Shown here: piece after piece, positions 1,209 to 20,927 of the stretch
How the letters are laid out: every line of letters starts with the position of its first letter
Numbering within the stretch: the stretch's first letter is position 1
Source of the DNA: an uncultured delta proteobacterium
GTDB lineage: Bacteria > Desulfobacterota > BSN033 > UBA1163
Direction: 5' to 3'
Assembly: GCA_963820625.1 (NCBI GenBank)
Contig: CAWGAV010000020.1
Coordinates: 138 to 64,137, forward strand
DNA length: 64,000 nucleotides
Made by a program: the position numbers and the translations under genes
The notes under the pieces: model-generated
Database searches by the model: none
Told to the model about the DNA's origin: nothing
Seen by the model: only the letters and a program-made list of their open reading frames with translations

Positions 1209-1237
1209 TTGACAACTAAACAAATGTATAGTATCTA
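1209..1237 (+). promoter_or_regulatory. sigma70-like promoter of lexA-1 (TTGACA-17 nt-TATCTA), with candidate LexA operator CTAAACAAATGTATAG (1216-1231) in the spacer
   Basis: Hexamers read directly. The 16-nt imperfect palindrome shares the core ACAAATGTA with the palindrome at the lexA-2 promoter. Confidence 0.4.
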
Positions 1238-1401
1238 TTGACATAGGAAATGGTCTGAGGTGAATGGGTGAGGAAGCCGGTTTGGTATCACTGTCAAGAG
1301 GTTAAGGCAACTTTAAAGACCAAATAACATAACCCATTTGACGAAACTGGCATCCTTACCTTTACCATAAGGCTGAAGACCTGGTAATTCAGGCCCAGGA
1401 G

Positions 1402-2073
1402 GTGACTATGGAACTGACATCCCGGCAGAAAGAGATCTTCAACTTCATCAAGGTATTTATCAAAGAGAGAGGTTATCCTCCTTCTGTAAGGGAGATCGGC
1501 GAGCACTTCAATATCTATCCCCGGGCAGCCTTCGACCACCTTAAGGCATTGGAGAAAAAAGGTTATTTGAAGCGGAGGGGTTCGATGTCCAGAGGTCTCG
1601 AGATCCTCGTCTTTCAAGGGTATGAATCGCATGGTTCATACCAGCGGGCCGGACCATATGGGGAACATCTAAAGAAAGAGGGGAGGCTATTGATCCGAGA
1701 GATTCCAGTCTTAGGTAGGGTGGCAGCAGGAAAACCCACCTTAGCTGTGGAACATGTGGAAGGGACGATTCCGCTTCCTACGGAATGGGTGAAAGGGAAA
1801 GAGGTCTTCCTTCTGAAGGTGAAGGGCGACAGTATGTCACCTTATATCCTTCCTGATGACTATGTCATCGTTCGGTCTCAACCCTCGGCAGAGAATGGGG
1901 ATGTGGTGGTGACCCTGGTGGGTGAAGAGGCAACGGTGAAACGGTTTTTCAAAAAGGGGAGGAGAATCGAATTGAAACCAGACAACGAGCGCTGGGAGAC
2001 GATTCAGATTGAGGAGGGGGCAGGAGAAGTTCAAATCCTTGGAAAAGTGATCGGGGTGTTTAGGAAAATTTAA
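1402..2073 (+). CDS. lexA: LexA repressor (paralog 1)
   Basis: N-terminal winged HTH (GYPPSVREIGEHF), Ala-Gly cleavage site (RVAAGKP), and S24 peptidase Ser/Lys (KGDSM ... VKRF). Confidence 0.9.
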   Translation: MTMELTSRQKEIFNFIKVFIKERGYPPSVREIGEHFNIYPRAAFDHLKALEKKGYLKRRGSMSRGLEILVFQGYESHGSYQRAGPYGEHLKKEGRLLIREIPVLGRVAAGKPTLAVEHVEGTIPLPTEWVKGKEVFLLKVKGDSMSPYILPDDYVIVRSQPSAENGDVVVTLVGEEATVKRFFKKGRRIELKPDNERWETIQIEEGAGEVQILGKVIGVFRKI

Positions 2074-2300
2074 ATAATAGTTCGGAGTAATGAGTTCGGA
2101 GTTCGGAGACAATAAGTTCGGGGTGATTACGTAGAAAATAAATTTCTTATCTCTCCATCCTTCATATTGATTCTATCATTCCCGTGCAAACGGGAATCCA
2201 GGCAAAGGATTACAAGGATATGGATTCCTGCTTTTGCAGGAATGACAAAGAGAGCGAGGTAACACTCCGAACTCCCAACTCCCAACTCCGAACTCAAAGC
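2074..2300. repeat. composite intergenic palindrome: GTTCGGAG-type tandem arm (2074-2125), inner REP element, complementary CTCCGAAC-type arm (2262-2300)
   Basis: Left arm is ttcggagtaatgagttcggagttcggag. Right arm is ctccgaactcccaactcccaactccgaactc. ORF 2127..2360(-) is only a translation of this repeat (VIPAKAGIH...). Confidence 0.7.
2176..2247 (+). repeat. REP-like double-hairpin element, copy 1 (cattcccgtgcaaacgggaat ... attcctgcttttgcaggaat)
   Basis: Two adjacent 7-8 bp stem hairpins. Near-identical copy at 2994-3068. Confidence 0.75.
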
Positions 2301-2308
2301 TAAAGACG

Positions 2309-3007
2309 ATGCATTACCCCATAAAACACTCATTCGATGAAATTTTGCTGCAACTGACACAGGTCGGTCTACCTGCTCAACCTATCTCTCTGAGAAAAGT
2401 TCTTTTTTGGGGAGAGAGGGCAGGAGAAATTTCGTCCTATGTGGCGGGATGGTTGGCAGCCAAAGGGATAGAGGTCATCGTATTGGATGGGGCCAATCGT
2501 TTCGATCCTTACATGGTCTCATCTTTCGCAAGAAAGGCATTGATCCCTCCAGAAAGACTTCTCAAAAGAATTCGAATCGCAAGGGCCTTCACTTGCTATC
2601 AGATGGCCATCATGGTCGGGGAGAAATTACACTCCTTGCTCAGTCAGGAGGGAGCGACCCGCCAATCGGAAAACCGATGGGTCATCCTTTTAGGACCGGT
2701 CACCCCGTTTATGGACGAGGATGTATCGGAAAGAGAGGTTCGACCTCTCTTCGAAAGATCTCTGAAAAAGATAGAAGAGATGGTTTTAGGGGGAATTCCT
2801 TTTCTTCTATTCCAACCTTCTGGCTCCTCTGACTCAAAGCGAGCCTATCTTACGAGAAGGCTCTTCCAGTTTTCTAATCTGATCTGGAGGATATCTCTGG
2901 AGGACCAGGAACCACGAGTTGTTCTGGAGAAGGGATTAACAAAATCGCAGATTGCAGATAGCAGATTGAAAAATCCCTGCCTTGACGATTCTGTCATTCC
3001 CGTGTAA
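2309..3007 (+). CDS. ImuA-like / degenerate RecA-fold protein (putative)
   Basis: 232 aa. Alternating strand/helix pattern with a degenerate Walker-A position (WGERAGEISSY) and a Walker-B-like IEVIVLDGANRFDP. Lies between lexA and polB. The last residues (DDSVIPV) come from a REP element. Confidence 0.45.
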   Translation: MHYPIKHSFDEILLQLTQVGLPAQPISLRKVLFWGERAGEISSYVAGWLAAKGIEVIVLDGANRFDPYMVSSFARKALIPPERLLKRIRIARAFTCYQMAIMVGEKLHSLLSQEGATRQSENRWVILLGPVTPFMDEDVSEREVRPLFERSLKKIEEMVLGGIPFLLFQPSGSSDSKRAYLTRRLFQFSNLIWRISLEDQEPRVVLEKGLTKSQIADSRLKNPCLDDSVIPV

Positions 3008-3068
3008 ATGGGAATCTAGATATGAATATTATAAAAAAATATGGATTCCTGCTTCTGCAGGAATGACA
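2994..3068 (+). repeat. REP-like double-hairpin element, copy 2
   Basis: tcattcccgtgtaaatgggaat...ggattcctgcttctgcaggaatgaca. Same family as 2176-2247 and overlaps the stop codon of the preceding ORF. Confidence 0.75.
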
Positions 3069-3178
3069 GAAGAGGCAGGATAAAGAGATCTCGTCGGTAG
3101 TAAATCCGACATTACATTTCTGTCGGAAGATAGAAAAATTTTGCAATTTTCAATTTAAAATTTGCATTTTGCATTGGA

Positions 3179-3445
3179 GTGCCAATGGGAAGAACGGTTC
3201 TTCCTTTTAGCAGGGTTCTGGAACAGGAAGTCCAGGAGTGGAGGAAGTTTCGGAGAGGCCTGAGAAAAGAAGATCAGCAGTTTCTCGACCGGCTCTTTGA
3301 AGAGGCAAGACTTCATGTGCAAGCTGGAGTCTATGCTTCAAGACCCTGGCCTTTTGAGACGATTCTGATCTCTATTCTTCTCGAGCACGAGAAGACTTTG
3401 GTCGATTTGAGATCGAAACTGAGGATATTAGAGGAGAAGGAGTAG
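3179..3445 (+). CDS. hypothetical 88-aa protein in the lexA-polB cassette
   Basis: ORF only, same strand and between cassette genes. No motif recognised. Confidence 0.45.
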   Translation: MPMGRTVLPFSRVLEQEVQEWRKFRRGLRKEDQQFLDRLFEEARLHVQAGVYASRPWPFETILISILLEHEKTLVDLRSKLRILEEKE

Positions 3446-3468
3446 CCGTACCAATTGATACCCTTCTT

Positions 3469-3543
3469 GTCATTCTGAGCGATAGCGAAGAATCTATTGA
3501 CCTCCTGTGAGATTCTTCGTCGCCTATTGCTCCTCAGAATGAC
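3469..3543. repeat. REP-like inverted repeat (gtcattctgagcgatagcgaagaatc ... gattcttcg...cctcagaatgac)
   Basis: Arms read directly. A half copy lies at about 59222-59255. It inflates the 5' end of tracked ORF 3497..5836. Confidence 0.7.
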
Positions 3544-3580
3544 AGTGGGGAGAATCGCTCAATTTAACGGGGAAAAACCC

Positions 3581-5836
3581 ATGGAGATCAGAGGACAGCT
3601 CTTTGATCTTTATCCTCTGGAGTCTTCGATGATCCTGTGGATCAAGGAAGAGGATGGAAGGCTTCGCCGATTCGAAGATCTTTTCAGGCCTCGATTCTAT
3701 ACGCGGGGGAAAAAAAGTGATCTTTTCGATCTCTTCCACTCTCTTCAGAAAGGGCGGCGGGCAGCAGGATACCAGTGGACCAGAAAGAAGGAGCTCTGGA
3801 GTGGCGATGAAGTGGAAGTGATGGAGATCGAGGTTGTAGATTCGGAGCATTATGCCCAACTTCCCCGAATTCTCCCCCAATGGGAGGAGAAGATTACCTT
3901 TTACAATTGCGACATTCCTTTGCCACAGACCTATCTTTATGAAAGAAAAATCTTTCCGACAGGCCGATGCATTGTCGAGGTTGAAGGAAATCGGATCTTT
4001 GAAATTCATCCTGATCCATCCGAGTCTGTGTGGATGAACGATGGAGACATTCCCGACCTCCGGGTCATGGAACTTCACACCAATGGTAACTCTGTGCTTC
4101 TTGGTAGACAGACCCTGAACCGCTCTGGTTCAGGGCTCATACTGAAGTGCGAAGGGTATGGGGTGGAGATGGAGACGATCGATGTTGGAGAAATTGAGAA
4201 GTTTCTCAAACGTTTCGATCCTGATGTGATCCTGAGCGATGATGGGGATGCCTCTCTTTTACCCCTTCTCTTTTCGGCAGAGAAGAGATGGAAGACTTCC
4301 ATCTCCTGGGATCGGGAGCCTTACCCTGTGAAAAGGCAGGTTCATCCGAAAGGTTTTTCTTACTTCTCCTATGGCAGGACCTACTATCGGGCCCCTGCCC
4401 ATATTTTTCTGGGAAGATGGCACATCGATCGTAGAAACTCCTTCATCTATGGAGAATCGGGAATGGAAGGAGTGATCGAACTGGCACGATTGGCTAAAAT
4501 TCCAGTTCAACGGATGGCTCGGACTTCACCAGGAACAGCGATCACCTCGATGCAACTCGACCGGGCCTTTCAGGATGATATCCTCATCCCCTGGAGAAAG
4601 GGGGAACCGGAACGATTCAAGACGGCGTGGGATCTGCTCATTGCGGACAAGGGAGGTCTTGTCTTCCAACCTAAGCTGGGGATCTTTGAAGATGTAGCAG
4701 AGATTGATTTTGCCTCGATGTATCCTACCATGATGGCGATTCACAATATCTCTCCGGAGACCGTACTTTGTGGATGTTGTGAGAACCATAGGGTTCCGGA
4801 GGCTGGTTATACAATCTGTGAAAGACGAAAGGGAATCGTACCTAGAACCCTTAGTCCTATCTTAACGAGAAGAACTTGGCTCAAGAAAATGGCCAAGGAA
4901 GGAGATCCAGATAGAAGAGAAATCTGCAACCGGAAACAGACGGCACTCAAATGGATGCTCGTTACATCCTTTGGATATTTAGGTTATCGGAATGCTCGCT
5001 TTGGAAGAATCGAAGCCCATGAAGCGGTCACTGCCTTTGGGAGGGAAAGCCTCCTTCAAGCCAAGGAGATCTGTGAGGCGGAAGGGTTCGAACTTCTCCA
5101 TGCCATTACCGATTCCCTCTGGATTCGCAAGAAAGGATTCAGAGAGGAAGAGGTTCTTAATCTCTGCGAGAAGATCAGCAAGGCCACAGGGATCACGATG
5201 AGTCTGGAGGGAATTTATCGATGGATGGCTTTTCTCCCCTCAAAAGGGAACCCAGAAAGCCCGGTGGCCAACCGTTATTTCGGACTCTTCCAAAACGGAA
5301 AGATTAAAGCGAGGGGGTTATCCTTTCGGCGAGGCGATATGCCTCCTTTGATTCAAGAGGCTCAGGTTCGAATGATAGGGGTTTTGACAGGGACAAAGAA
5401 TATGGAGGATTTCCGGTCGAAGATCCCTGAGATTTTAGACCTTCTCCTCGAATATAGCCTGAAGTTGAAGGACGGCCAGACGAGGCAAGAGGATTTGGCT
5501 ATCGGGAAGAGAATTTCTCGGGAGCCTAATGCCTATAAAGTGGATAGCCTCACTGCTCTCGCCGCCCAACAGTTGGAAGATGTTGGAATCGAGATCCATC
5601 CCGGAGAGAAGGTTCGGTATGTGATCAAGGATGCCGAATCCAGGGATAAGGCGGAGCGAGTCAGGCCTTTCCCTTTAGTGGGGCCGGATGACACCTACGA
5701 TGTCAAAAAATATCTGGAGATGCTCGTGAAAGCAACCGAGGAGATATTGATCCATGTTGGCTATGATGCAAAACGCCTGTACCCCTTACTCTCCCTCTCC
5801 CCTGAGCGGGAGAGAGGAAGGGTGAGGGAAACTTGA
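3581..5836 (+). CDS. polB: family-B DNA polymerase, archaeal-PolB-like, exonuclease motifs degenerate
   Basis: Motif A is DFASMYPTMMAIHNISPET, motif B is KWMLVTSFGYLGYRNARFG, motif C is LLHAITDSL, and the KxY-like motif is ANRYFGL. Exo I position reads VMELHT (no DxE). Exo II reads DDGDASLL (no NxxxFD). Start moved to ATG 3581 (MEIRGQLFDL) because 3497-3580 is a REP element. The C-terminal tail (LSPERERGRVRET) is REP-derived. Confidence 0.85.
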   Translation: MEIRGQLFDLYPLESSMILWIKEEDGRLRRFEDLFRPRFYTRGKKSDLFDLFHSLQKGRRAAGYQWTRKKELWSGDEVEVMEIEVVDSEHYAQLPRILPQWEEKITFYNCDIPLPQTYLYERKIFPTGRCIVEVEGNRIFEIHPDPSESVWMNDGDIPDLRVMELHTNGNSVLLGRQTLNRSGSGLILKCEGYGVEMETIDVGEIEKFLKRFDPDVILSDDGDASLLPLLFSAEKRWKTSISWDREPYPVKRQVHPKGFSYFSYGRTYYRAPAHIFLGRWHIDRRNSFIYGESGMEGVIELARLAKIPVQRMARTSPGTAITSMQLDRAFQDDILIPWRKGEPERFKTAWDLLIADKGGLVFQPKLGIFEDVAEIDFASMYPTMMAIHNISPETVLCGCCENHRVPEAGYTICERRKGIVPRTLSPILTRRTWLKKMAKEGDPDRREICNRKQTALKWMLVTSFGYLGYRNARFGRIEAHEAVTAFGRESLLQAKEICEAEGFELLHAITDSLWIRKKGFREEEVLNLCEKISKATGITMSLEGIYRWMAFLPSKGNPESPVANRYFGLFQNGKIKARGLSFRRGDMPPLIQEAQVRMIGVLTGTKNMEDFRSKIPEILDLLLEYSLKLKDGQTRQEDLAIGKRISREPNAYKVDSLTALAAQQLEDVGIEIHPGEKVRYVIKDAESRDKAERVRPFPLVGPDDTYDVKKYLEMLVKATEEILIHVGYDAKRLYPLLSLSPERERGRVRET

Positions 5837-6024
5837 AGAATTAAATAGAAAAAGTAGATAAAGTTACCCCTTGTATAGTTAAGTTACTGGAGAATGATTG
5901 AAATCAGATGAATCTGGGTTGAAGATCTGAAGTTTAGCGATAACGCATCAAGTGTGTTATATTGATTCAAACCAATTTGTTTGTCAGAGATTCTGAGCCA
6001 ATCAAATTCTTAGGGGAGGAACCC

Positions 6025-6330
6025 ATGTTTGAGGTTTCGGAAAAGGCGACTGAGATGATCAAGGAGTCCTTCATAGATCAGGAGAAAATCCCATCCATCC
6101 GTGTGGCATTCAACGAGGGTGGCTGAATGGGGCCATCATTGGGCCTGGTTCAGGATGAACCGAGTGAAGATGACGAAGTTTTTACACAAGAAGGTGTCAC
6201 TTATCTTGTTAACAAAGACTTGTCTGAGCAGGTAAAGCCCATTAAGGTGGATTTTATCGATACGCCCAGAGGAGGCGGATTTTTCATTTTCTCCAATCTA
6301 GGGAAAGAATCCGGATCCTGTTGTTGCTAA
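6025..6330 (+). CDS. HesB/IscA-like protein with in-frame UGA (probable selenoprotein)
   Basis: ATG 6025 is preceded by GGAGG. Translation: MFEVSEKATEMIKESF..IRVAFNEGG-[TGA 6124-6126]-MGPSLGLVQDEP...GSCCC. The UGA sits where HesB/IscA proteins have the GGC(S)G cysteine. Tracked ORF 6127..6330 is in the same frame. Hairpin at 6146-6162. Confidence 0.7.
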
Positions 6331-6456
6331 AATGAGGGAGGGGAGAGAGCTTCAAGTTTCAAACGAAAAATTCTTTTCAAAAAGGTACAGCAGCCAAAAA
6401 AAATAGAACAATTTGATCTGCCTGCATCTATCCCCATCATGGAAGTGATCGCAACG

Positions 6457-10362: not shown

Positions 10363-10760
10363 AGGTATCTACCCCTTTCTTTCTAGAACAAAAAACCCTC
10401 TCCATTCTTAGTCCATGGAAAGGGTGGATTTATTCAATTTTTCTTTTACTAAATAACCCTACCTGGTAGAATGGACCTCCCTATATCTAACACCCATATA
10501 AAGTAATTTAATCAATTCTCAATACTAATATATTCAAAGTAGCAAGTTTTGTCAAGCATTATTTTTATGTAAATTATTTATTATTTTCAGTTAGTTATAA
10601 ATTAGACGGTTAATATTCCTATTTTCATATAGGATTAATTCCGCATTTTTTTGTGAATAGTTAATAAATTCTCCAGGGTTGAAACATTGCTTTGTAACTA
10701 TTTGAAAATTAAAATAAATTCTTCATATGATGGTGGCAGGAAAAAAGTAATGGTTCTTAA

Positions 10761-10882
10761 TTTGACCCGTTCAACGGCACCCAAGCCCTTGGCCTTAGAC
10801 TTCGGCGTGACCTCAGTCGAGCGTTCGGGCCGAAAGCAAGCCCCAGCCGTTAGGCCGGGGAACTCAAGGGTTGACTTTGGGT
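10761..10882 (+). repeat. about 120-nt structured intergenic element, copy A (possible ncRNA or repeat)
   Basis: Shares a 5' block (TTCRACGGCRCCMAA) and a 3' block (AGCAASCCCCRGSCSTTAGRCCGGGGAA..TC.AAGGGTTRA) with 44745-44862. Tracked ORFs on both strands here look spurious. Confidence 0.35.
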
Positions 10883-10953
10883 AGGGCATCTCTTATAAAA
10901 TTTAAATCTGAATAATTAATCCTCCATTCCCTTTTCTAAAAAGGGTTGAAAGA

Positions 10954-11823
10954 ATGCCTATGGGATATGTGGATCTCCACCTTCATACGACCGCTTCTGA
11001 CGGGGTGCTAAGCCCATCAGAGATCGTGAGATATGCAAAAGGGAAAGGGCTTCAGGCGATTGCAATCACTGATCATGATACCATCGAAGGGTGTGAGGAG
11101 GGGTTGGCAGAAGGGGAAAAAATTGGTTTTGAAGTGATCCCGGGAATTGAAATTAGCGCCGAGCATTCACCTGGCTCCATGCATATCTTAGGGTTTTTTC
11201 TCGATATCCATCATCCCCTCCTCAATGAAAGGTTGGCATATCTTCAAAAGGCAAGGGCAGAAAGAAATCCGAAGATTGTGGAAAAGTTGAATCGGTTAGG
11301 AATTGATATAACCTTTGAAGAGGTGGTGAAGGCCTCTGGGGGTGGGCAGGTTGGGCGGCCCCATTTTGCCAATGTGCTTTTGGAAAAGAAGTATGTCAGA
11401 AGTTTTCAGGAAGCTTTCGATCGGTTTCTGAAAAAGGGAGCCCCAGCCTATGTGGACAAATTAAGATTTACATCGAAAGAGGCTCTGCATTTTATCAACG
11501 AAGCCAAAGGGGTGGCAGTGCTTGCTCATCCAAATACCCTCGGGATGAATGGATACTCAGAACTGGAGAAACTTATTCTTAAACTTGTGGAAGAGGGGCT
11601 TAAAGGGATTGAGGTCTATTATCCTGAGCACTCTGCGGCGGAAGTGGCACAATATAAAACCCTTGCCGAAAGATACGGTCTCCTGGCGACAGGGGGGACG
11701 GATTATCATGGAATCGAAAAAAACGCATTGGACATCGGGGTAGGGAAAGGAGAGATGAAGATTCCTTTCTCCATCGTGGAGAATCTCAAGGCAGTTCGAA
11801 ATCGGTCTTTATTGGAGAAGTAA
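10954..11823 (+). CDS. PHP-domain phosphoesterase (TrpH/YciV-like)
   Basis: VDLHLHTTASDGVLSPSEIV...AIAITDHDTIEG and later His/Asp motifs (VLAHP, GGTDYHG). Confidence 0.8.
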   Translation: MPMGYVDLHLHTTASDGVLSPSEIVRYAKGKGLQAIAITDHDTIEGCEEGLAEGEKIGFEVIPGIEISAEHSPGSMHILGFFLDIHHPLLNERLAYLQKARAERNPKIVEKLNRLGIDITFEEVVKASGGGQVGRPHFANVLLEKKYVRSFQEAFDRFLKKGAPAYVDKLRFTSKEALHFINEAKGVAVLAHPNTLGMNGYSELEKLILKLVEEGLKGIEVYYPEHSAAEVAQYKTLAERYGLLATGGTDYHGIEKNALDIGVGKGEMKIPFSIVENLKAVRNRSLLEK

Positions 11824-11827
11824 ATAG

Positions 11828-12241
11828 GTGGTTGTCCTTTTATTGATCGTCACGACTTTACTATGGGGATCGACCCCCATTCTTGAAAAGATAGGTTTGG
11901 CAAAAGTGGACCCCCTGATTGGGGTCACCATTCGAAGCGCCATTGTCACGGCAGGCCTTTTTTTGCTCACCTTTCTATTGGGTAAAGGCAGGGCATTAAT
12001 TGAATTGGATGGGAAGAGCATTTTCCTCTTTGGCGCAAGCGGCATGATGGCAGGTCTTCTCGGTATGTGGACTTATTACACTGCCTTGAAAATGGAGGCC
12101 ACCTCTAAAATCGTTCCCATTGCCGCCTGTTACCCTTTGGTGACCGCCCTTCTGAGTGTTTTGGTTCTCAAAGAAGGAGTAACCCTTCACAGGATCATTG
12201 GTACAGCACTAATCGTCTCAGGAATCTGGCTGGTCAAATAA
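11828..12241 (+). CDS. EamA-domain (DMT superfamily) small membrane protein
   Basis: 137 aa, 4-5 TM segments, EamA-like N-terminus (LLWGSTPILEKIG). Confidence 0.55.
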   Translation: MVVLLLIVTTLLWGSTPILEKIGLAKVDPLIGVTIRSAIVTAGLFLLTFLLGKGRALIELDGKSIFLFGASGMMAGLLGMWTYYTALKMEATSKIVPIAACYPLVTALLSVLVLKEGVTLHRIIGTALIVSGIWLVK

Positions 12242-12250
12242 AGGATGCCA

Positions 12251-12378
12251 CGGAGTCATTGGGTCTTTGAGTCTTTAAATCTCTTAAAGAATTGGACGCA
12301 AAGACGCAAAGACGCTAAGACGCAAAGACGAAATGATAGGTTAATCCAATGACTTAATCACTTAATGACCTAATTATG
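12251..12378. repeat. nested intergenic palindrome built from tandem oligomers (GTCTTTG / CAAAGACG units; GTCATTGG / CCAATGAC outer arms)
   Basis: gagtcattgggtctttgagtcttt ... gacgcaaagacgcaaagacgctaagacgcaaagacg ... ccaatgacttaatcacttaatgacc. Confidence 0.65.
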
Positions 12379-15995: not shown

Positions 15996-16042
15996 TTGAC
16001 AGCGAAAAGAATTGAAGATATAAATAGTCTACAAATGTAGAC
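15996..16042 (+). promoter_or_regulatory. sigma70-like promoter of lexA-2 (TTGACA-17 nt-TATAAA), followed by perfect palindrome GTCTACAAATGTAGAC (16027-16042), a candidate LexA operator
   Basis: Hexamers and the 7-2-7 palindrome were read directly. The palindrome sits just 3' of the -10 element. Confidence 0.5.
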
Positions 16043-16096
16043 CTCTAATAAAGAGGCTCAAAGTTCAAAGCTCAAAGGGGGAAAAAGGAAAATAAA

Positions 16097-16723
16097 ATGG
16101 AAGACAAAAAAGAACTGACTTCAACTCAACAGAGAGTCTTTGATTTTTTGAAGGATTATCTTCGGGAAAAAGGGTTTCCGCCAACGCTTCGTGAAATTGC
16201 TTCTCACTTTGGATTAAAAGGGCCTAAGGCGCCACAAAAAACCCTGAGCATCCTTGAGAGGAAGGGGTACATCCGTAAAGTCCCGGGAGGTTCGAGGGCG
16301 ATTGAAATTTTAAGCTACCCACAGTTCAGTCTTACCCAAATACTTCCAATCCCCATTGTAGGAAGAGTGAAAGCAGGTGAACCCATTCTCGCCATCGAGA
16401 ATATCGAGGGTTACATTAACTTCGATCGGACTCTTGTCTCTTCAGGGGATGTCTTTCTCCTTCGGGTCCAGGGAGAGAGCATGATCGATGCTCACATTCA
16501 GGACGGAGATTTTGCCCTGGTGAAGCCGCAGCCCAATGCAGAAAACGGTGAGATTGTCGTGGCCTTGATCGAAGATGAGGCAACGATCAAGAGGATCTTT
16601 AAAAAGAGGGACTTAATTCGGCTTGAACCAGCCAATCCCAAGATGGAACCCATTGTCGTCAAAAAAGGAGAGAAAAAGGTCATCATTGTTGGAAAGGTAA
16701 TCGGGATTTTTAGAAAACTTTAA
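16097..16723 (+). CDS. lexA: LexA repressor (paralog 2)
   Basis: GFPPTLREIASHF HTH, Ala-Gly site (RVKAGEP), QGESM serine and IKRIF lysine. Confidence 0.9.
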   Translation: MEDKKELTSTQQRVFDFLKDYLREKGFPPTLREIASHFGLKGPKAPQKTLSILERKGYIRKVPGGSRAIEILSYPQFSLTQILPIPIVGRVKAGEPILAIENIEGYINFDRTLVSSGDVFLLRVQGESMIDAHIQDGDFALVKPQPNAENGEIVVALIEDEATIKRIFKKRDLIRLEPANPKMEPIVVKKGEKKVIIVGKVIGIFRKL

Positions 16724-16812
16724 TGGCTGATAGCCAATGGCGAATGGCTTATAGCTAATAGCTTATTGTTAAGTCCTTTATTCCGTTTACCATCAGCCAT
16801 AGGCTATCTGCT
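16724..16812. repeat. intergenic hairpin with tandem-oligomer arms (GGCTGATAGCC / GCTATCAGCC type) between lexA-2 and dinB
   Basis: atggctgatagccaatggcgaatggcttatagctaatagc ... ccatcagccataggctatctgc. Confidence 0.6.
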
Positions 16813-17979
16813 ATGTGCAATTCTATGGACGATCGAATTATACTTCATATAGACATGGATGCTTTTTTTATTTCGGTGGAACAGAGGGATAATCCCGCAC
16901 TAATGGGAAAACCTGCGGCGGTTTGTGGCTCTCTTTCCCGAAGTGTGGTCACTTCAGCCACCTATGAGGCAAGGCCTTTTGGAATTCGAGCAGGGATGTC
17001 GACCCAGGAGGCAAAAGGGCGTTGTCCCCAGTTGATTCTTGTGGAGGGGAACCATTCGAAATATACGGAAACCGCAGCCCGAATTTTTTCTATTCTGAAA
17101 GGACAGACGCCCCTGGTGGAGATCGCCTCCATTGACGAGGCCTATCTCGATATCACCCAATCCCTGCTCCTCTTCCATTCTCCTCTCCTCATTGCCCAAT
17201 CGATCAAAGAACGAATTGGGGGAAGTGAACAATTGACCTGTTCCATCGGAGTGGCTCCGAATAAACTTCTTGCCAAGTTGGGAAGTCGTCTAAAAAAACC
17301 TGATGGTTTGGTGATAATTCCAAAAGAGGAGGTGGAGGAGATATTAAAGGATCTTCCCGTATCGAAACTCAATGGGATTGGTCCAAAGCTTGGAGAGGCG
17401 TTAAATTCGATAAGCATATTTACTTGTGGACAATTGGGAAAGTTTCCGGTTTCTGTTTTAACCAAAAGGTTTGGTGTCATCGGCGAGAGACTCCACGAGA
17501 TGGGTTTGGGATGGGAAGATAGTCCGGTCGTACCTTTTGATGAGGAGGAGGATACCAAATCAATGAGCCACAGCGTCACCCTCGAAGAGGATACCTCTGA
17601 CCCAAATATCCTGAGAAAAGTTTTGCTTCAACTTTCCGAAAAGGTTTCCAGAAGGATGAGGAGGGAAAAGTTCTATGGGAAGAGGATTGCCATTACGGTC
17701 CGTTATTCAGATTTTTTTACCTTCTCAAAACAAAGGACCCTTTCTAAATGGATGAATAGCGGTAATGAAATATTTCAACACGCCTTTGAGATTTTTGAAT
17801 CGATTCCCCATCCAAAACCAATTCGTCTCCTCGGAGTGGGGATTTCTCAATTGAAAAAAGAGTGGTGCCAGTTGGATCTTTTTGAAAGGAAGGATAAAAA
17901 GGAAACCCTTCTCAAAGCAATGGATCGAATCAATGAACGATTCGGAGATTGGACCTTAACCTGGGCAGGGCTTTATTGA
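16813..17979 (+). CDS. dinB: DNA polymerase IV (Y-family)
   Basis: ILHIDMDAFFISVEQRDNP...SIDEAYLDIT...GVAPNKLLAKL...LNGIGPK. Likely start at Met 16825. Confidence 0.9.
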   Translation: MCNSMDDRIILHIDMDAFFISVEQRDNPALMGKPAAVCGSLSRSVVTSATYEARPFGIRAGMSTQEAKGRCPQLILVEGNHSKYTETAARIFSILKGQTPLVEIASIDEAYLDITQSLLLFHSPLLIAQSIKERIGGSEQLTCSIGVAPNKLLAKLGSRLKKPDGLVIIPKEEVEEILKDLPVSKLNGIGPKLGEALNSISIFTCGQLGKFPVSVLTKRFGVIGERLHEMGLGWEDSPVVPFDEEEDTKSMSHSVTLEEDTSDPNILRKVLLQLSEKVSRRMRREKFYGKRIAITVRYSDFFTFSKQRTLSKWMNSGNEIFQHAFEIFESIPHPKPIRLLGVGISQLKKEWCQLDLFERKDKKETLLKAMDRINERFGDWTLTWAGLY

Positions 17980-18421: not shown

Positions 18422-19978
18422 GTGTCATCCCCTCATATTATCATCAACCTATACTTGGTAGATGAATTTATGAAACTAACATCAACACATCTGCAAGATA
18501 ACACGCTTTTTCCTCTCAAAGGGAAATTAATTGAACCTATCGGTATCAACCTTGAGAATCAAACACATATTACTACTAAACAGCAGACTGTTTTGGAAAG
18601 GATAAATGCCCTTGATAGCAGATTAACGCAGCACTTTCACAACAAAATCAAGCTCCAACCAGCATTAACACGTCAACTTGTTAGCTTTCAAGCCAACAAA
18701 CATAGGCCAACCTACCGCTGGTATAAATACAAAGAGGCTTTTTCCGCATCTCTCATTGAAATTTTGTTGTCCAAATATGGAATTAGATCTGGCAAGGTAC
18801 TTGATCCATTTGCAGGGAGTGGCACGGCCTTGTTTGCAGCAAGCGATACCGGGATTGATGCTGATGGGATTGAACTGCTTCCTGTCGGGCAACAGATTAT
18901 TCTTGCAAGAAAATGTTTGGAGAAAGAATTTACTACAGATGATTTCGCCACGCTTAAACGTTGGGGGACAGATCGTCCCTGGTCTCAATCAAAAATAAAA
19001 ATACCTCTTTCTAAGTTGCGGATCACTGACGGAGCCTATCCAAAGCAAACGATTGAATTAATCGAACAGTATATGGGGGCCTGGCAGAGCGAAAACAACC
19101 GAGTTCAGTCTGTATTACGATTTGCCTTGTTATGTGTACTGGAGTCAATTAGTTTTACCCGCAAGGATGGGCAGTATCTCCGATGGGATTATCGTTCAGG
19201 TCGCCGGCAGGGGACACAGCCTTTCAACAAAGGAGGGATAATCAATTTCGATAAGGCAATTTGTGCCAAAATTAGTGAGATTTGTCATGATTTAGATGTA
19301 AGTAAGGAACCCAGTCAGCTTTTCTCCTCAAAAGTTCTACAAGGTGACATTCGTCTTTTTTGTGGTTCCTGCCTCGACATAATGCCTACACTGCCTGAGA
19401 ACTTATACGACGCAGTGATGACATCCCCTCCTTATTGTAACCGCTATGACTATACAAGGACATATGCATTAGAGTTAGCCTTACTTGGGATAGGAGAAGA
19501 TGAACTTAGCAGGCTTAGACAAGAAATGTTAAGCTGTACAGTCGAAAATAGGGCCAAGGACTTATTGAAGATCAATCCGGAATGGACAAGCGCGATAGCG
19601 GCTGCAGACAGTCAAGAGTTGTTACAGGTTATCTTGCGTTATCTTGAGGACGAAAAAGCTGAAGGTCGTTTAAACAATAACGGCATTCCCAGAATGATAC
19701 GTGGCTATTTCTATGAAATGGCCTGCATTATTTGTGAGTGTGCTCGTGTTATGAAAGCAAATACCCCCTTATTTATGGTAAATGATAACGTGCGCTATGC
19801 AGGCGCAAGTATTTCAGTTGATATGATCCTTTCTAATATCGCAGAAAAATTGGGATTCAATGTAGAAAACATCCTTGTTTTGCCAAACGGTAAAGGCAAT
19901 AGCAGCCAGCAAATGGGGAGACATGGCCGTGATCCATTAAGAAAGTGTGTTTACGTATGGAGAAAAAATAGTGGCTAA
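18422..19978 (+). CDS. type II DNA methyltransferase (amino-methyltransferase, N6-A or N4-C)
   Basis: AdoMet motif I is [15 protein letters not shown]. Catalytic motif IV is [12 protein letters not shown] about 200 aa downstream (motif I, then target-recognition region, then motif IV). Likely start at ATG 18470 (MKLTSTHL). Confidence 0.8.
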
Positions 19979-20927
19979 AAACAAACCCCACCGCAAGCAC
20001 CTGTCCAGCGGCGACGACCTCATAACTACTTATGAAGAAATTAGAGCCGGTTTTGTCGCGTTAGCCTTAGAAAAAAACCGTAGAGCTACTCCTTTTGTCG
20101 AGCAAGCCCGCTCTTTAAAAGCAGCTGCATCTCAAGTCAAAACTCCTGCGGATTTACTTAATATTGAGAGCATACAACCTGCCCTCTTGACAGCTTCAGG
20201 CGTGTCAGACAAAGCAATGAATTATCTTTTGCCTCAAGACAGGATAGAAGCGATTCAAGGATTGATAGCAAAATACCTTGAACCTGCTGGGCCTGCGTTT
20301 GTTGAAGAATTAGTTTTTAGATTTTTGTTAACGAGGGGAGACACACTTGGGGGTTCAATGCGAAATATAGGCGGGGTCATGGGAGAGCGTAAGCTGACTC
20401 GTGCAACTCTTGCGAATCTTGCACTTGCGGGAATTCCCTATCAATGGCTTCACTCTGACAGTAAAGAGTGGATAATTGGGAAAAATGATGATGCTGATAT
20501 AGAATTATACCTTACTGCGCTTAGTTGGTCATACAAAGGTCGGGGTCGTACCATGATTTATAACCGCAGAGTACCTTTTATAGGCAAAAACATTGATTTA
20601 TGCCTTCTTAATTGTACTCCTCAAAATCTGAATAACGCCTTTACTACACCATCTCGCTACATTGCTCTTGGAGAACTCAAAGGTGGTATTGATCCGGCTG
20701 GAGCAGATGAACACTGGAAAACTGCAAGAACATCCTTAGCCCGTATACGAAAAGCGTTCTCTGATAACAAGTTATCACCCTATATATTTTTTGTTGGTGC
20801 GGCAATTGAAAACAGCATGGCAGAAGAAATCTGGCACCAGTTAGAAGACAGGACATTAAGCAATGCTGCCAATTTGACCAATGCAGATCAAGTTGCATCT
20901 TTGTGTGGATGGTTATGCAGTTTATAA
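19947..20927 (+). CDS. probable type II restriction endonuclease (partner of the methyltransferase)
   Basis: Overlaps the MTase stop and is on the same strand. No housekeeping similarity. Contains a [17 protein letters not shown] segment reminiscent of PD-(D/E)XK-type REase cores. Assignment rests mainly on context. Confidence 0.55.

Follow-up and report, generated by a model that had tools for sequence, protein, structure and literature searches.

Operons that join a B-family DNA polymerase of the PolB2 group to two partner proteins had been described in archaea and bacteria before our work. In 2014, Makarova, Krupovic, and Koonin reported a PolB2/arCOG07300/inactivated-RadA operon in archaea, found the same three families linked in several bacteria, and noted that lexA sometimes belongs to the predicted operon, as in Leptospirillum ferriphilum (LFML04_0990-0993) (PMC4104785). 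In 2025, Timinskas, Timinskas, and Venclovas coined the names iRadA and PPB2 for the partner proteins. In their account, iRadA-PPB2-PolB2 is the only order in bacteria, lexA is enriched beside the operon, the first Asp of the DxD motif is missing from most PolB2 proteins, PPB2 has an “MGRT” N-terminal arm, and the three proteins are modeled by AlphaFold-Multimer and AF3 as a PolB2-iRadA-(PPB2)3 heteropentamer (PMC11791011). A survey published in 2026 treats bacterial PolB2 as an established group (PMC12926913). In Sulfolobus islandicus, the PolB2 protein Dpo2 (IID) is damage-induced and alone accounts for targeted mutagenesis in that organism (PMC7390963), and its translesion synthesis (TLS) activity in vitro is cited in PMC11791011. 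Here we analyze a four-gene cassette in a 64-kb stretch of contig CAWGAV010000020.1 (hereafter the window). We read it, with a probability of roughly 0.85, as a PolB2 mutasome operon behind lexA in a Thermodesulfobacteriota (Syntrophia-like) genome, for which we propose the damage-induced mechanism set out below. The system is already known, and the locus is not a new kind of system; the function assigned to its bacterial form rests on computation.

The cassette consists of four open reading frames (ORFs) on the + strand (1402-2073, 2309-3007, 3179-3445, and 3497/3581-5836). A preliminary description of this DNA had reported four co-directional genes, and all four, together with every motif string that it quoted, are present in the sequence. 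The first gene, lexA (1408-2073), encodes 221 aa comprising a winged-helix DNA-binding domain and an S24 self-cleaving peptidase. Its most likely start is the ATG at 1408 (MELTSRQ...), which has AGGAGG 5 nt upstream and agrees with homologs that begin MELT; the frame is also open from a GTG at 1402, which we judge the less likely start. The second gene, iRadA (2309-3007), encodes 232 aa that form a catalytically inactive RadA/Rad51 core without the N-terminal helix-hairpin-helix domain. The third, PPB2 (arCOG07300/Pfam DUF8156; 3185-3445), encodes 86 aa predicted to form three helices with a free N-terminal MGRT arm; it starts at ATG 3185 (MGRTVLPF...), as do 24 of 25 aligned homologs at their own MGRT, the remainder having been called from upstream starts. 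The fourth, PolB2 (3581-5836), encodes a 751-aa archaeal-type family-B DNA polymerase whose exonuclease active site has been lost. It starts at ATG 3581, in keeping with homologs that begin MEIRG, and the upstream extension of this frame from TTG 3497 is spurious, being explained by a repeat element at 3466-3546. Ratios of nonsynonymous to synonymous substitution rates (dN/dS) between the window and a related locus, L001, are 0.10 for lexA, 0.19 for iRadA, 0.13 for PPB2, and 0.13 for PolB2, and thus all four genes are functional and under purifying selection. Pseudogenization of the cassette is ruled out by this range of 0.10-0.19. The identification of the cassette as a PolB2 mutasome operon of bacterial type (lexA-iRadA-PPB2-PolB2) is close to certain.

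The arrangement recurs widely. We surveyed the neighborhoods of the best 80 loci of at least 595 relatives, taking one genome per GTDB species, scanning six-frame ORFs with profile hidden Markov models, and counting only loci with enough upstream sequence. PPB2 stands directly upstream of PolB2 in 47 of 52 bacterial and 13 of 13 archaeal loci, and iRadA stands upstream of PPB2 in 46 of 51 and 12 of 12, respectively. An adjacent co-directional lexA was found at 19 of 50 bacterial loci (∼40%) and at none of nine archaeal ones. The archaeal loci are those of Bathyarchaeia and Nitrososphaerota; those of bacteria are spread over many groups, namely Thermodesulfobacteriota, Acidobacteriota, Nitrospirota, Bacteroidota/Ignavibacteria, Chloroflexota, Armatimonadota, Sumerlaeota, and Elusimicrobia. 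A Thermodesulfobacteriota metagenome-assembled genome carries a 90%-identical relative (P0006) with the same four genes, in the form lexA-217 aa-DUF8156-PolB with spacers of 103, 79, and 75 nt. The survey and this relative show that the linkage is conserved.

The cassette contains a whole three-gene archaeal operon (iRadA-PPB2-PolB2), archaea-derived and placed behind lexA, and Bathyarchaeia carry these three genes in the same order. In an unbootstrapped neighbor-joining tree built from 414 columns of the polymerase domain, with Pyrococcus abyssi PolB3 as the root, the archaeal operon-bearing clade is sister to a single bacterial clade, and the PolB2 of the window lies among Syntrophaceae and Thermodesulfobacteriota sequences. 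The preliminary description had not recognized the arrangement as a described system. However, the operon with lexA is present both in PMC4104785 (2014) and in PMC11791011 (2025), the latter including an 82%-identical relative: its supplement tabulates OGQ10870/10868/10869 as “LexA iRadA PPB2 PolB2” with HAITDSLWI/ITD and no clamp motif. The catalogued polymerase (RBG_19FT) is P0059 in our own search and is the one 82% identical to the PolB2 of the window. The functional inference drawn earlier for this locus is essentially the published interpretation of the PolB2 operon.

The affinities of the polymerase are archaeal. PolB2 matches Pfam PF00136 (DNA_pol_B) at 7e-36, and its top NCBIfam models are the archaeal “type B DNA polymerase” families NF004416 (422 bits) and NF004418 (357 bits), whose models span 665-717 positions. 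The NCBIfam models for PolB1 (“DNA polymerase I”) and Pol II score lower, those for Pol II reaching 40-61 bits against cut-offs of 570-1435. As a single sequence searched against the PDB, PolB2 scores ∼150 bits with Pyrococcus/Thermococcus PolB (152 with P. abyssi PolB), 98 with Sulfolobus solfataricus PolB1, ∼84 with Pol alpha, and 41 with Escherichia coli Pol II. The family profile gives 353 bits with archaeal PolB3, 225 with PolB1, 158 with Pol alpha, and 104 with E. coli Pol II, so that the ranking runs PolB3 > PolB1 > Pol alpha > Pol delta > Pol II. By both measures the resemblance is to archaeal PolB rather than to E. coli Pol II, as had been suggested from the letters. Pol II identity (E. 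coli polB type) is ruled out by the sub-cut-off Pol II models and the absent exonuclease motifs. With a single sequence, the N-terminal/exonuclease half barely aligns to archaeal PolB3. An N-terminal fragment of Haloarcula vallismortis PolB2 (399 aa, taken from the supplement of PMC11791011) does align to it, over 425 residues (BLASTP, E = 4e-41). On these alignments the protein can be assigned to the PolB2 group of family B, with archaeal PolB3/PolB1 as its nearest relatives.

The catalytic residues of the polymerase site are largely kept, and those of the exonuclease site are not. We aligned 36 diverse family representatives with 32-68% identity to the query. Both D376 (motif A) and D511 (the second Asp of motif C) are invariant among them. 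In motif B, K457 and W458 vary hardly at all, and many palm and finger residues are likewise kept. The earlier claim that the polymerase motifs are retained holds for motif A (DFASMYPT) but not for motif C, which reads HAITDS and has Ile at the first Asp of DxD; Ile stands there throughout the family, whose consensus is HAIVDS. The 3′-5′ exonuclease domain is present in decayed form, and a Pfam scan of PolB2 found no match to DNA_pol_B_exo1 (PF03104). The corresponding segments read MELH (Exo I), DGDASL (Exo II), and YGESG (Exo III), and their positions are non-acidic and unconserved over the 36 members. Intact acidic residues were not seen at them, which confirms the exonuclease degeneracy proposed before. 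For comparison, we take the archaeal reference motifs to be FDIE for Exo I, NGDNFD in the wild type for Exo II, and YxxxD for Exo III; in the alignment shown, P. abyssi PolB reads NGDNFA at the Exo II column. PolB2 also contains a loop motif, D244-R245 (SWDREP), whose Arg is invariant and in most members follows an Asp. It corresponds to the D(K/R) motif described for PolB2 in the loop after Exo II, whose contact with PPB2 belongs to the published model (PMC11791011). Separately, PolB2 has a Cys cluster at residues 397-413 (∼nt 4769-4819; ETVLCGCCENHRVPEAGYTIC), three of whose residues (C397, C400, and C413) are invariant and a fourth, C399, almost so. Two of these Cys align with Cys of P. abyssi PolB, and the extra ones could mean a metal site.

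A Pfam scan of the 232-aa protein gave no match, NCBIfam gave RadA at E ∼0.01 only, and none of its 897 homologs carries a Pfam annotation. Its AlphaFold2 model (mean predicted local distance difference test score 80, predicted template modeling [TM] score 0.78) was compared with the PDB by Foldseek, and the top 50 matches are all RadA/Rad51/Dmc1 (E ∼1e-9, TM ∼0.6). A profile built from 44 homologs likewise found RadA/Rad51 only in the PDB (best E 0.002), with the segment VIVLDGANRFDPYMVSSFARKALIPPERLLKRIRIARAF aligned to Pyrococcus furiosus RadA. The RecA fold proposed for this protein is borne out by the Foldseek matches, and its degenerate Walker A is confirmed as GERAGEIS, in which Lys is replaced by Ile. 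The Walker B assignment must be moved: the string IVLDGANRFD, to which it had been given, aligns to another segment of RadA, and the real Walker B strand is WVILLG, where the Asp is lost. The protein is best described as an ATPase-dead RadA/Rad51 core that matches the published iRadA.

These results bear on the reading from which the locus was first approached, namely that it is an undescribed variant of imuA-imuB-dnaE2 in which an ImuA-like protein was kept and a B-family polymerase stands in place of ImuB/DnaE2. The gross layout is indeed the same, with lexA first, then a degenerate RecA-fold protein, and a polymerase without proofreading. LexA-headed imu cassettes are often under a dedicated LexA paralog, an established arrangement, and the window holds a second lexA. 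However, ImuA, SulA, and KaiC profiles found no match on iRadA in the Pfam and NCBIfam scans, and Imu-family profiles (ImuA, ImuB, DnaE2) found none on the cassette genes. The RecA-fold protein has its affinity with archaeal RadA and eukaryotic Rad51/Dmc1, not with ImuA, RecA, or KaiC. Moreover, the gene trio is found in identical order in Bathyarchaeia, which have neither LexA nor an Imu system, and the arrangement is the published one, including the 82%-identical relative. We therefore regard an imu variant as highly improbable. The earlier idea of an SOS mutasome that pairs an exonuclease-dead PolB with a partner of degenerate RecA fold is supported and matches the published view; the replacement of ImuB/DnaE2 by PolB is not supported.

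The small protein is recognizable through its homologs. Pfam and NCBIfam scans of PPB2 itself returned nothing usable. A search recovered 1534 homologs, of which the 120 best (88-97% identical) all carry PF26485 (DUF8156). Residues G2, R3, and T4 of the arm are invariant across 25 aligned homologs, and the AlphaFold2 model places helices at 8-23, 28-46, and 57-85 behind a disordered N-terminal arm. Foldseek comparison of this model with the PDB gave no significant match and two weak ones, both to extracytoplasmic function (ECF) sigma factors, a type of weak match also reported for PPB2 in PMC11791011.

The residues lost from PolB2 and iRadA suit another possibility, in which inactivated PolB2, inactive RadA, and PPB2 form a noncatalytic complex with a structural or regulatory part to play at stalled forks or when replication restarts. 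Makarova et al. raised it in 2014 (PMC4104785), before Dpo2 activity had been shown, and it fits the Ile at the first DxD Asp, the dead exonuclease site, and an iRadA without Walker A Lys and Walker B Asp. Against it, the 36 members keep D376, D511, K457, and many residues of the palm and fingers with little or no variation, and the dN/dS of PolB2 is 0.13. In addition, S. islandicus Dpo2, with its IID motif, is an active TLS polymerase in vivo (PMC7390963) and, as cited in PMC11791011, in vitro. A purely noncatalytic role is accordingly quite unlikely, and we continue with PolB2 as the catalytic subunit of an error-prone polymerase.

LexA has all the features expected of the repressor: a winged helix, the S24 Ser/Lys dyad, and an Ala-Gly cleavage site. 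It matches Pfam LexA_DNA_bind at 5e-22 and Peptidase_S24 at 6e-35 and scores 209 bits with TIGR00498 lexA, whose cut-off is 111; the cleavage site lies in VAAG, the catalytic Ser in GDSM, and the Lys in TVKRF. Upstream of the gene, a promoter with a candidate LexA operator occupies 1209-1237 on the + strand. It consists of a −35 hexamer TTGACA (1209-1214), a 17-nt spacer, and a weak −10 hexamer TATCTA (1232-1237), and the spacer contains the imperfect palindrome CTAAAC-AAAT-GTATAG (1216-1231). The window shares a 27-nt block, CTTGAMAACTAAACAAATGTATAGTAT, letter for letter with loci L001, L006, L008, and L009, while the flanks of the block and the leader of ∼170 nt have diverged; the −10 hexamer in L009 is TATAAT.

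More distant loci have comparable elements in the same place. In L019, whose PolB2 is 47% identical and which is without lexA, the promoter TTGACA-ACTATACATTAGTATAG-TATATT lies ∼130 nt upstream of iRadA and holds the perfect palindrome CTATAC-ATTA-GTATAG. In L023 (Nitrospirae), CTATAC-TTAT-GTGTAG is found at the same position upstream of lexA. Other phyla have LexA-box-like repeats of a related or lineage-typical kind in this place: the promoter spacers of the lexA-PolB2 operons L024/L026 carry CTGAAC-N3-GTTCAG, and that of the acidobacterial L018 carries GTTC-N7-GTTC repeats. In the 64-kb window, the exact 16-mer palindrome occurs with up to three mismatches at the lexA site only. A degenerate operator pattern with two mismatches finds 5 sites in the window against 3.7 expected by chance, with none upstream of any cassette gene. 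A consensus scan detected no internal promoter within the cassette, the sole promoter-like element being the one upstream of lexA. The comparison of these loci gives good evidence for transcription of the operon from a LexA-type operator-promoter, and LexA may bind the candidate palindrome at 1216-1231. A limited literature search found no description of CTAWAC-N4-GTWTAG as a LexA-binding motif for Thermodesulfobacteriota or Nitrospirota, although one may still be published. The candidate operator, together with the spacer repeats and the lexA-dinB cassette described below, is among the points that are new in this analysis.

The spacers between the genes set this copy of the operon apart. They measure 235, 177, and 135 nt, and their counterparts in L001 only 103, 79, and 75 nt. 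The lexA-iRadA spacer (2074-2308, + strand) forms a long hairpin, with arms at 2079-2108 and 2265-2294, around the first copy (2169-2247) of a two-hairpin element of ∼80 nt. The RNA of the whole spacer folds at −88.2 kcal/mol (z = −7.4), and copy 1 alone at z = −3.4. Copy 2 (2987-3068, + strand; z = −4.9) overlaps the 3′ end of iRadA, covers its last codons (DSVIPV and the stop), and reaches into the iRadA-PPB2 spacer. The two direct copies flank iRadA and are the only ones in 64 kb; as direct repeats D1 and D2 they are 88-89% identical and lie 818-821 nt apart. A third structured repeat element (3466-3546, + strand) within the PPB2-PolB2 spacer forms a long hairpin at −38.2 kcal/mol (z = −5.5). 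An Rfam scan of the whole window gave no match. Hairpin elements that resemble repetitive extragenic palindromes or miniature inverted-repeat transposable elements fill every spacer of the cassette in this way (2079-2294, 2987-3068, 3466-3546) and run into the coding tails. In homologs (P0001-P0046), similar elements are read as protein and supply variable C-termini and in-frame insertions in iRadA, for example ...PFPPFTKGG..GGL... between LLFQPS and DSKR.

Such insertions raise the possibility that lexA was uncoupled from the genes behind it, which would then be expressed at a low constitutive level, be silent, or be controlled otherwise, for example by the second LexA. This would account for the length of the spacers relative to those of L001 and for the very stable folding of all three (z −3.4 to −7.4), and the operator motif does occur only upstream of lexA. 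However, no promoter-like sequence lies inside the cassette, and the + strand of the spacers shows no convincing intrinsic terminator: the one hairpin there with a T-tract behind it is a weak 5-bp stem at 3093-3110. Since none of the repeat elements is followed by a T-run on the + strand, transcripts are likely to read through the spacers. The four genes have stayed intact and show purifying selection, and repeat-derived tails and insertions are common in homologs, where they are apparently tolerated. Uncoupling is unlikely, if less so than a noncatalytic role, and a single transcription unit headed by lexA remains our preferred reading. Within that unit, the structured spacers may attenuate the transcript or stabilize its parts differentially.

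The repeats also reach the proteins. The C-terminal tails of iRadA (DSVIPV) and PolB2 (SLSPERERGRVRET) are translated repeat elements, and no β-clamp-binding (QLxLF-like) motif is recognizable in either. A clamp-binding motif at the iRadA or PolB2 C-terminus is present in only a fraction of PolB2 mutasome members and is not strictly defining, and the clamp-motif fields are also empty for the 82%-identical relative (PMC11791011). Many close PolB2 relatives (e.g., P0018, P0021, P0028, P0034, P0038) end in ...GYDAKRLKKMIDF or ...KEVIDF. This short, conserved hydrophobic peptide could be clamp-binding-like; the window has the repeat-derived tail instead.

Our proposed mechanism for the PolB2 mutasome operon runs as follows. 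LexA would bind the palindrome CTAWAC-N4-GTWTAG in the spacer of the sole recognizable promoter, upstream of lexA. Upon DNA damage, RecA-stimulated self-cleavage of LexA would derepress the transcription unit. PolB2, a single iRadA, and a trimer of PPB2 would then come together as the heteropentamer that Timinskas et al. predicted. This complex would extend primer termini across or past lesions without proofreading and would thereby leave damage-targeted mutations, as S. islandicus Dpo2 does. Several observations weigh against this reading. The −10 hexamer TATCTA is weak in this genome, and the binding of LexA to the palindrome is an inference. The 235-nt lexA-iRadA spacer at −88 kcal/mol and the hairpins in the other two spacers mean that co-transcription is not assured. 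With a second LexA paralog in the window, either repressor may control the operon. Neither variable tail holds a recognizable β-clamp motif, and the activity, complex, and damage induction of bacterial PolB2 are extrapolated from Sulfolobus and from in silico models. Taking these points into account, we think that the cassette probably acts in this bacterium as a LexA-controlled, damage-induced, error-prone extender polymerase.

The second lexA heads a translesion cassette of its own (lexA2-dinB; window 15996-17979), ∼10 kb downstream. lexA2 (16097-16723) encodes 208 aa with LexA_DNA_bind and Peptidase_S24 domains, 41% identical to the lexA1 product, and is directly followed by the gene of a Y-family DinB-like polymerase (16813-17979; IMS, IMS_HHH, IMS_C). 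Upstream of it lies TTGACA-17 nt-TATAAA, followed by the perfect palindrome GTCTAC-AAAT-GTAGAC at 16027-16042. The center of this palindrome, AC-AAAT-GT, is the same as in the lexA1 operator candidate, and the outer bases differ; no further copy of the lexA2-type palindrome was found in the window. These features can be combined in a tentative model of a split SOS network, which we consider possible rather than probable. In it, lexA1 would head the PolB2 mutasome and lexA2 would head DinB, each LexA would read its own variant of a shared operator core (CTAAAC-AAAT-GTATAG for lexA1, GTCTAC-AAAT-GTAGAC for lexA2), and the repeat insertions would tune the stoichiometry of PPB2 trimer, iRadA, and PolB2. 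Just downstream of lexA2-dinB, a DNA methylase gene (N6_N4_Mtase, 18422-19978) and the gene of a BsoBI-type restriction endonuclease (19947-20927; PF09194, E = 6e-149) overlap, and the pair resembles a type II restriction-modification system.

The DNA directly behind PolB2 differs from that of L001, the 90%-identical relative. There (10438-12316), PolB2 is followed by a 375-aa protein without a Pfam match and a DUF5131 protein, neither of which is in the window. In that place (5837-6456) the window has a HesB-like gene, and beyond it FabH, a VTT-domain protein, and a ferredoxin are again syntenic with L001. The HesB/IscA-like ORF (6027-6330; PF01521, E = 4e-7 with the stop read as Cys) is broken by an in-frame TGA at 6124-6126 in the context ...NEGG-TGA-MGPSLG.... 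Read-through would join the two ORFs, making this a candidate selenocysteine codon. A small hairpin, GGUUCAGGAUGAACC, lies ∼23 nt downstream of the TGA, with a fold z of only −2.2.

The locus adds nothing categorically new. Its value is that of a concrete test case, with intact genes and a defined promoter/operator candidate, for a system whose genetic characterization has been carried out in Sulfolobus only and whose bacterial form is known from computational work. Among prokaryotes, no multi-subunit B-family translesion polymerase other than the PolB2 mutasome is known, and the mutasome provides a clear case of an entire repair operon that moved from archaea to bacteria and was rewired under LexA. 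The neighboring lexA2-dinB cassette offers a setting for asking whether paralogous LexA proteins partition error-prone polymerases between them.

It is useful, finally, to contrast the operon with known systems. The bacterial lexA PolB2 operons of type 1a (PMC11791011) have the same four genes in the same order, the HAITDSLWI motif, the MGRT arm, and a dead exonuclease. Only local differences distinguish this genome from them, namely the long structured spacer repeats and the repeat-derived iRadA and PolB2 tails. S. islandicus Dpo2, compared here by its published description, shares the PolB2 group, the IxD variant, the decayed exonuclease, and the two partner families. In Sulfolobus, however, the order is PPB2-PolB2-iRadA (type 3a) rather than iRadA-PPB2-PolB2, and the clamp is bound via PCNA motifs. 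Regulation there is archaeal and not by LexA; homologs of orc1/cdc6, implicated in the archaeal DNA-damage response, are enriched nearby. The damage-inducible, multi-gene lexA2-imuA-imuB-dnaE2 mutagenesis cassette of Proteobacteria is likewise headed by LexA, and it too combines an accessory protein of degenerate RecA fold with a polymerase that does not proofread. Its parts are nonhomologous, with ImuA set against iRadA, the inactive Y-family ImuB against PPB2, and the C-family DnaE2 against the B-family PolB2. E. coli Pol V (UmuD′2C-RecA-ATP), a multi-subunit TLS polymerase under SOS control, binds a protein of the RecA/Rad51 family, and the N-terminal arm of its small subunit reaches the catalytic subunit, an architectural parallel drawn in PMC11791011. 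It differs in having a Y-family catalytic subunit, an active RecA, and a UmuD′ dimer of the S24 peptidase fold. E. coli Pol II (polB), like PolB2, is a family-B polymerase; it is LexA-regulated and acts as a TLS extender, as PolB2 would, but it works as one subunit, has active DEDDy proofreading, and is only distantly related.

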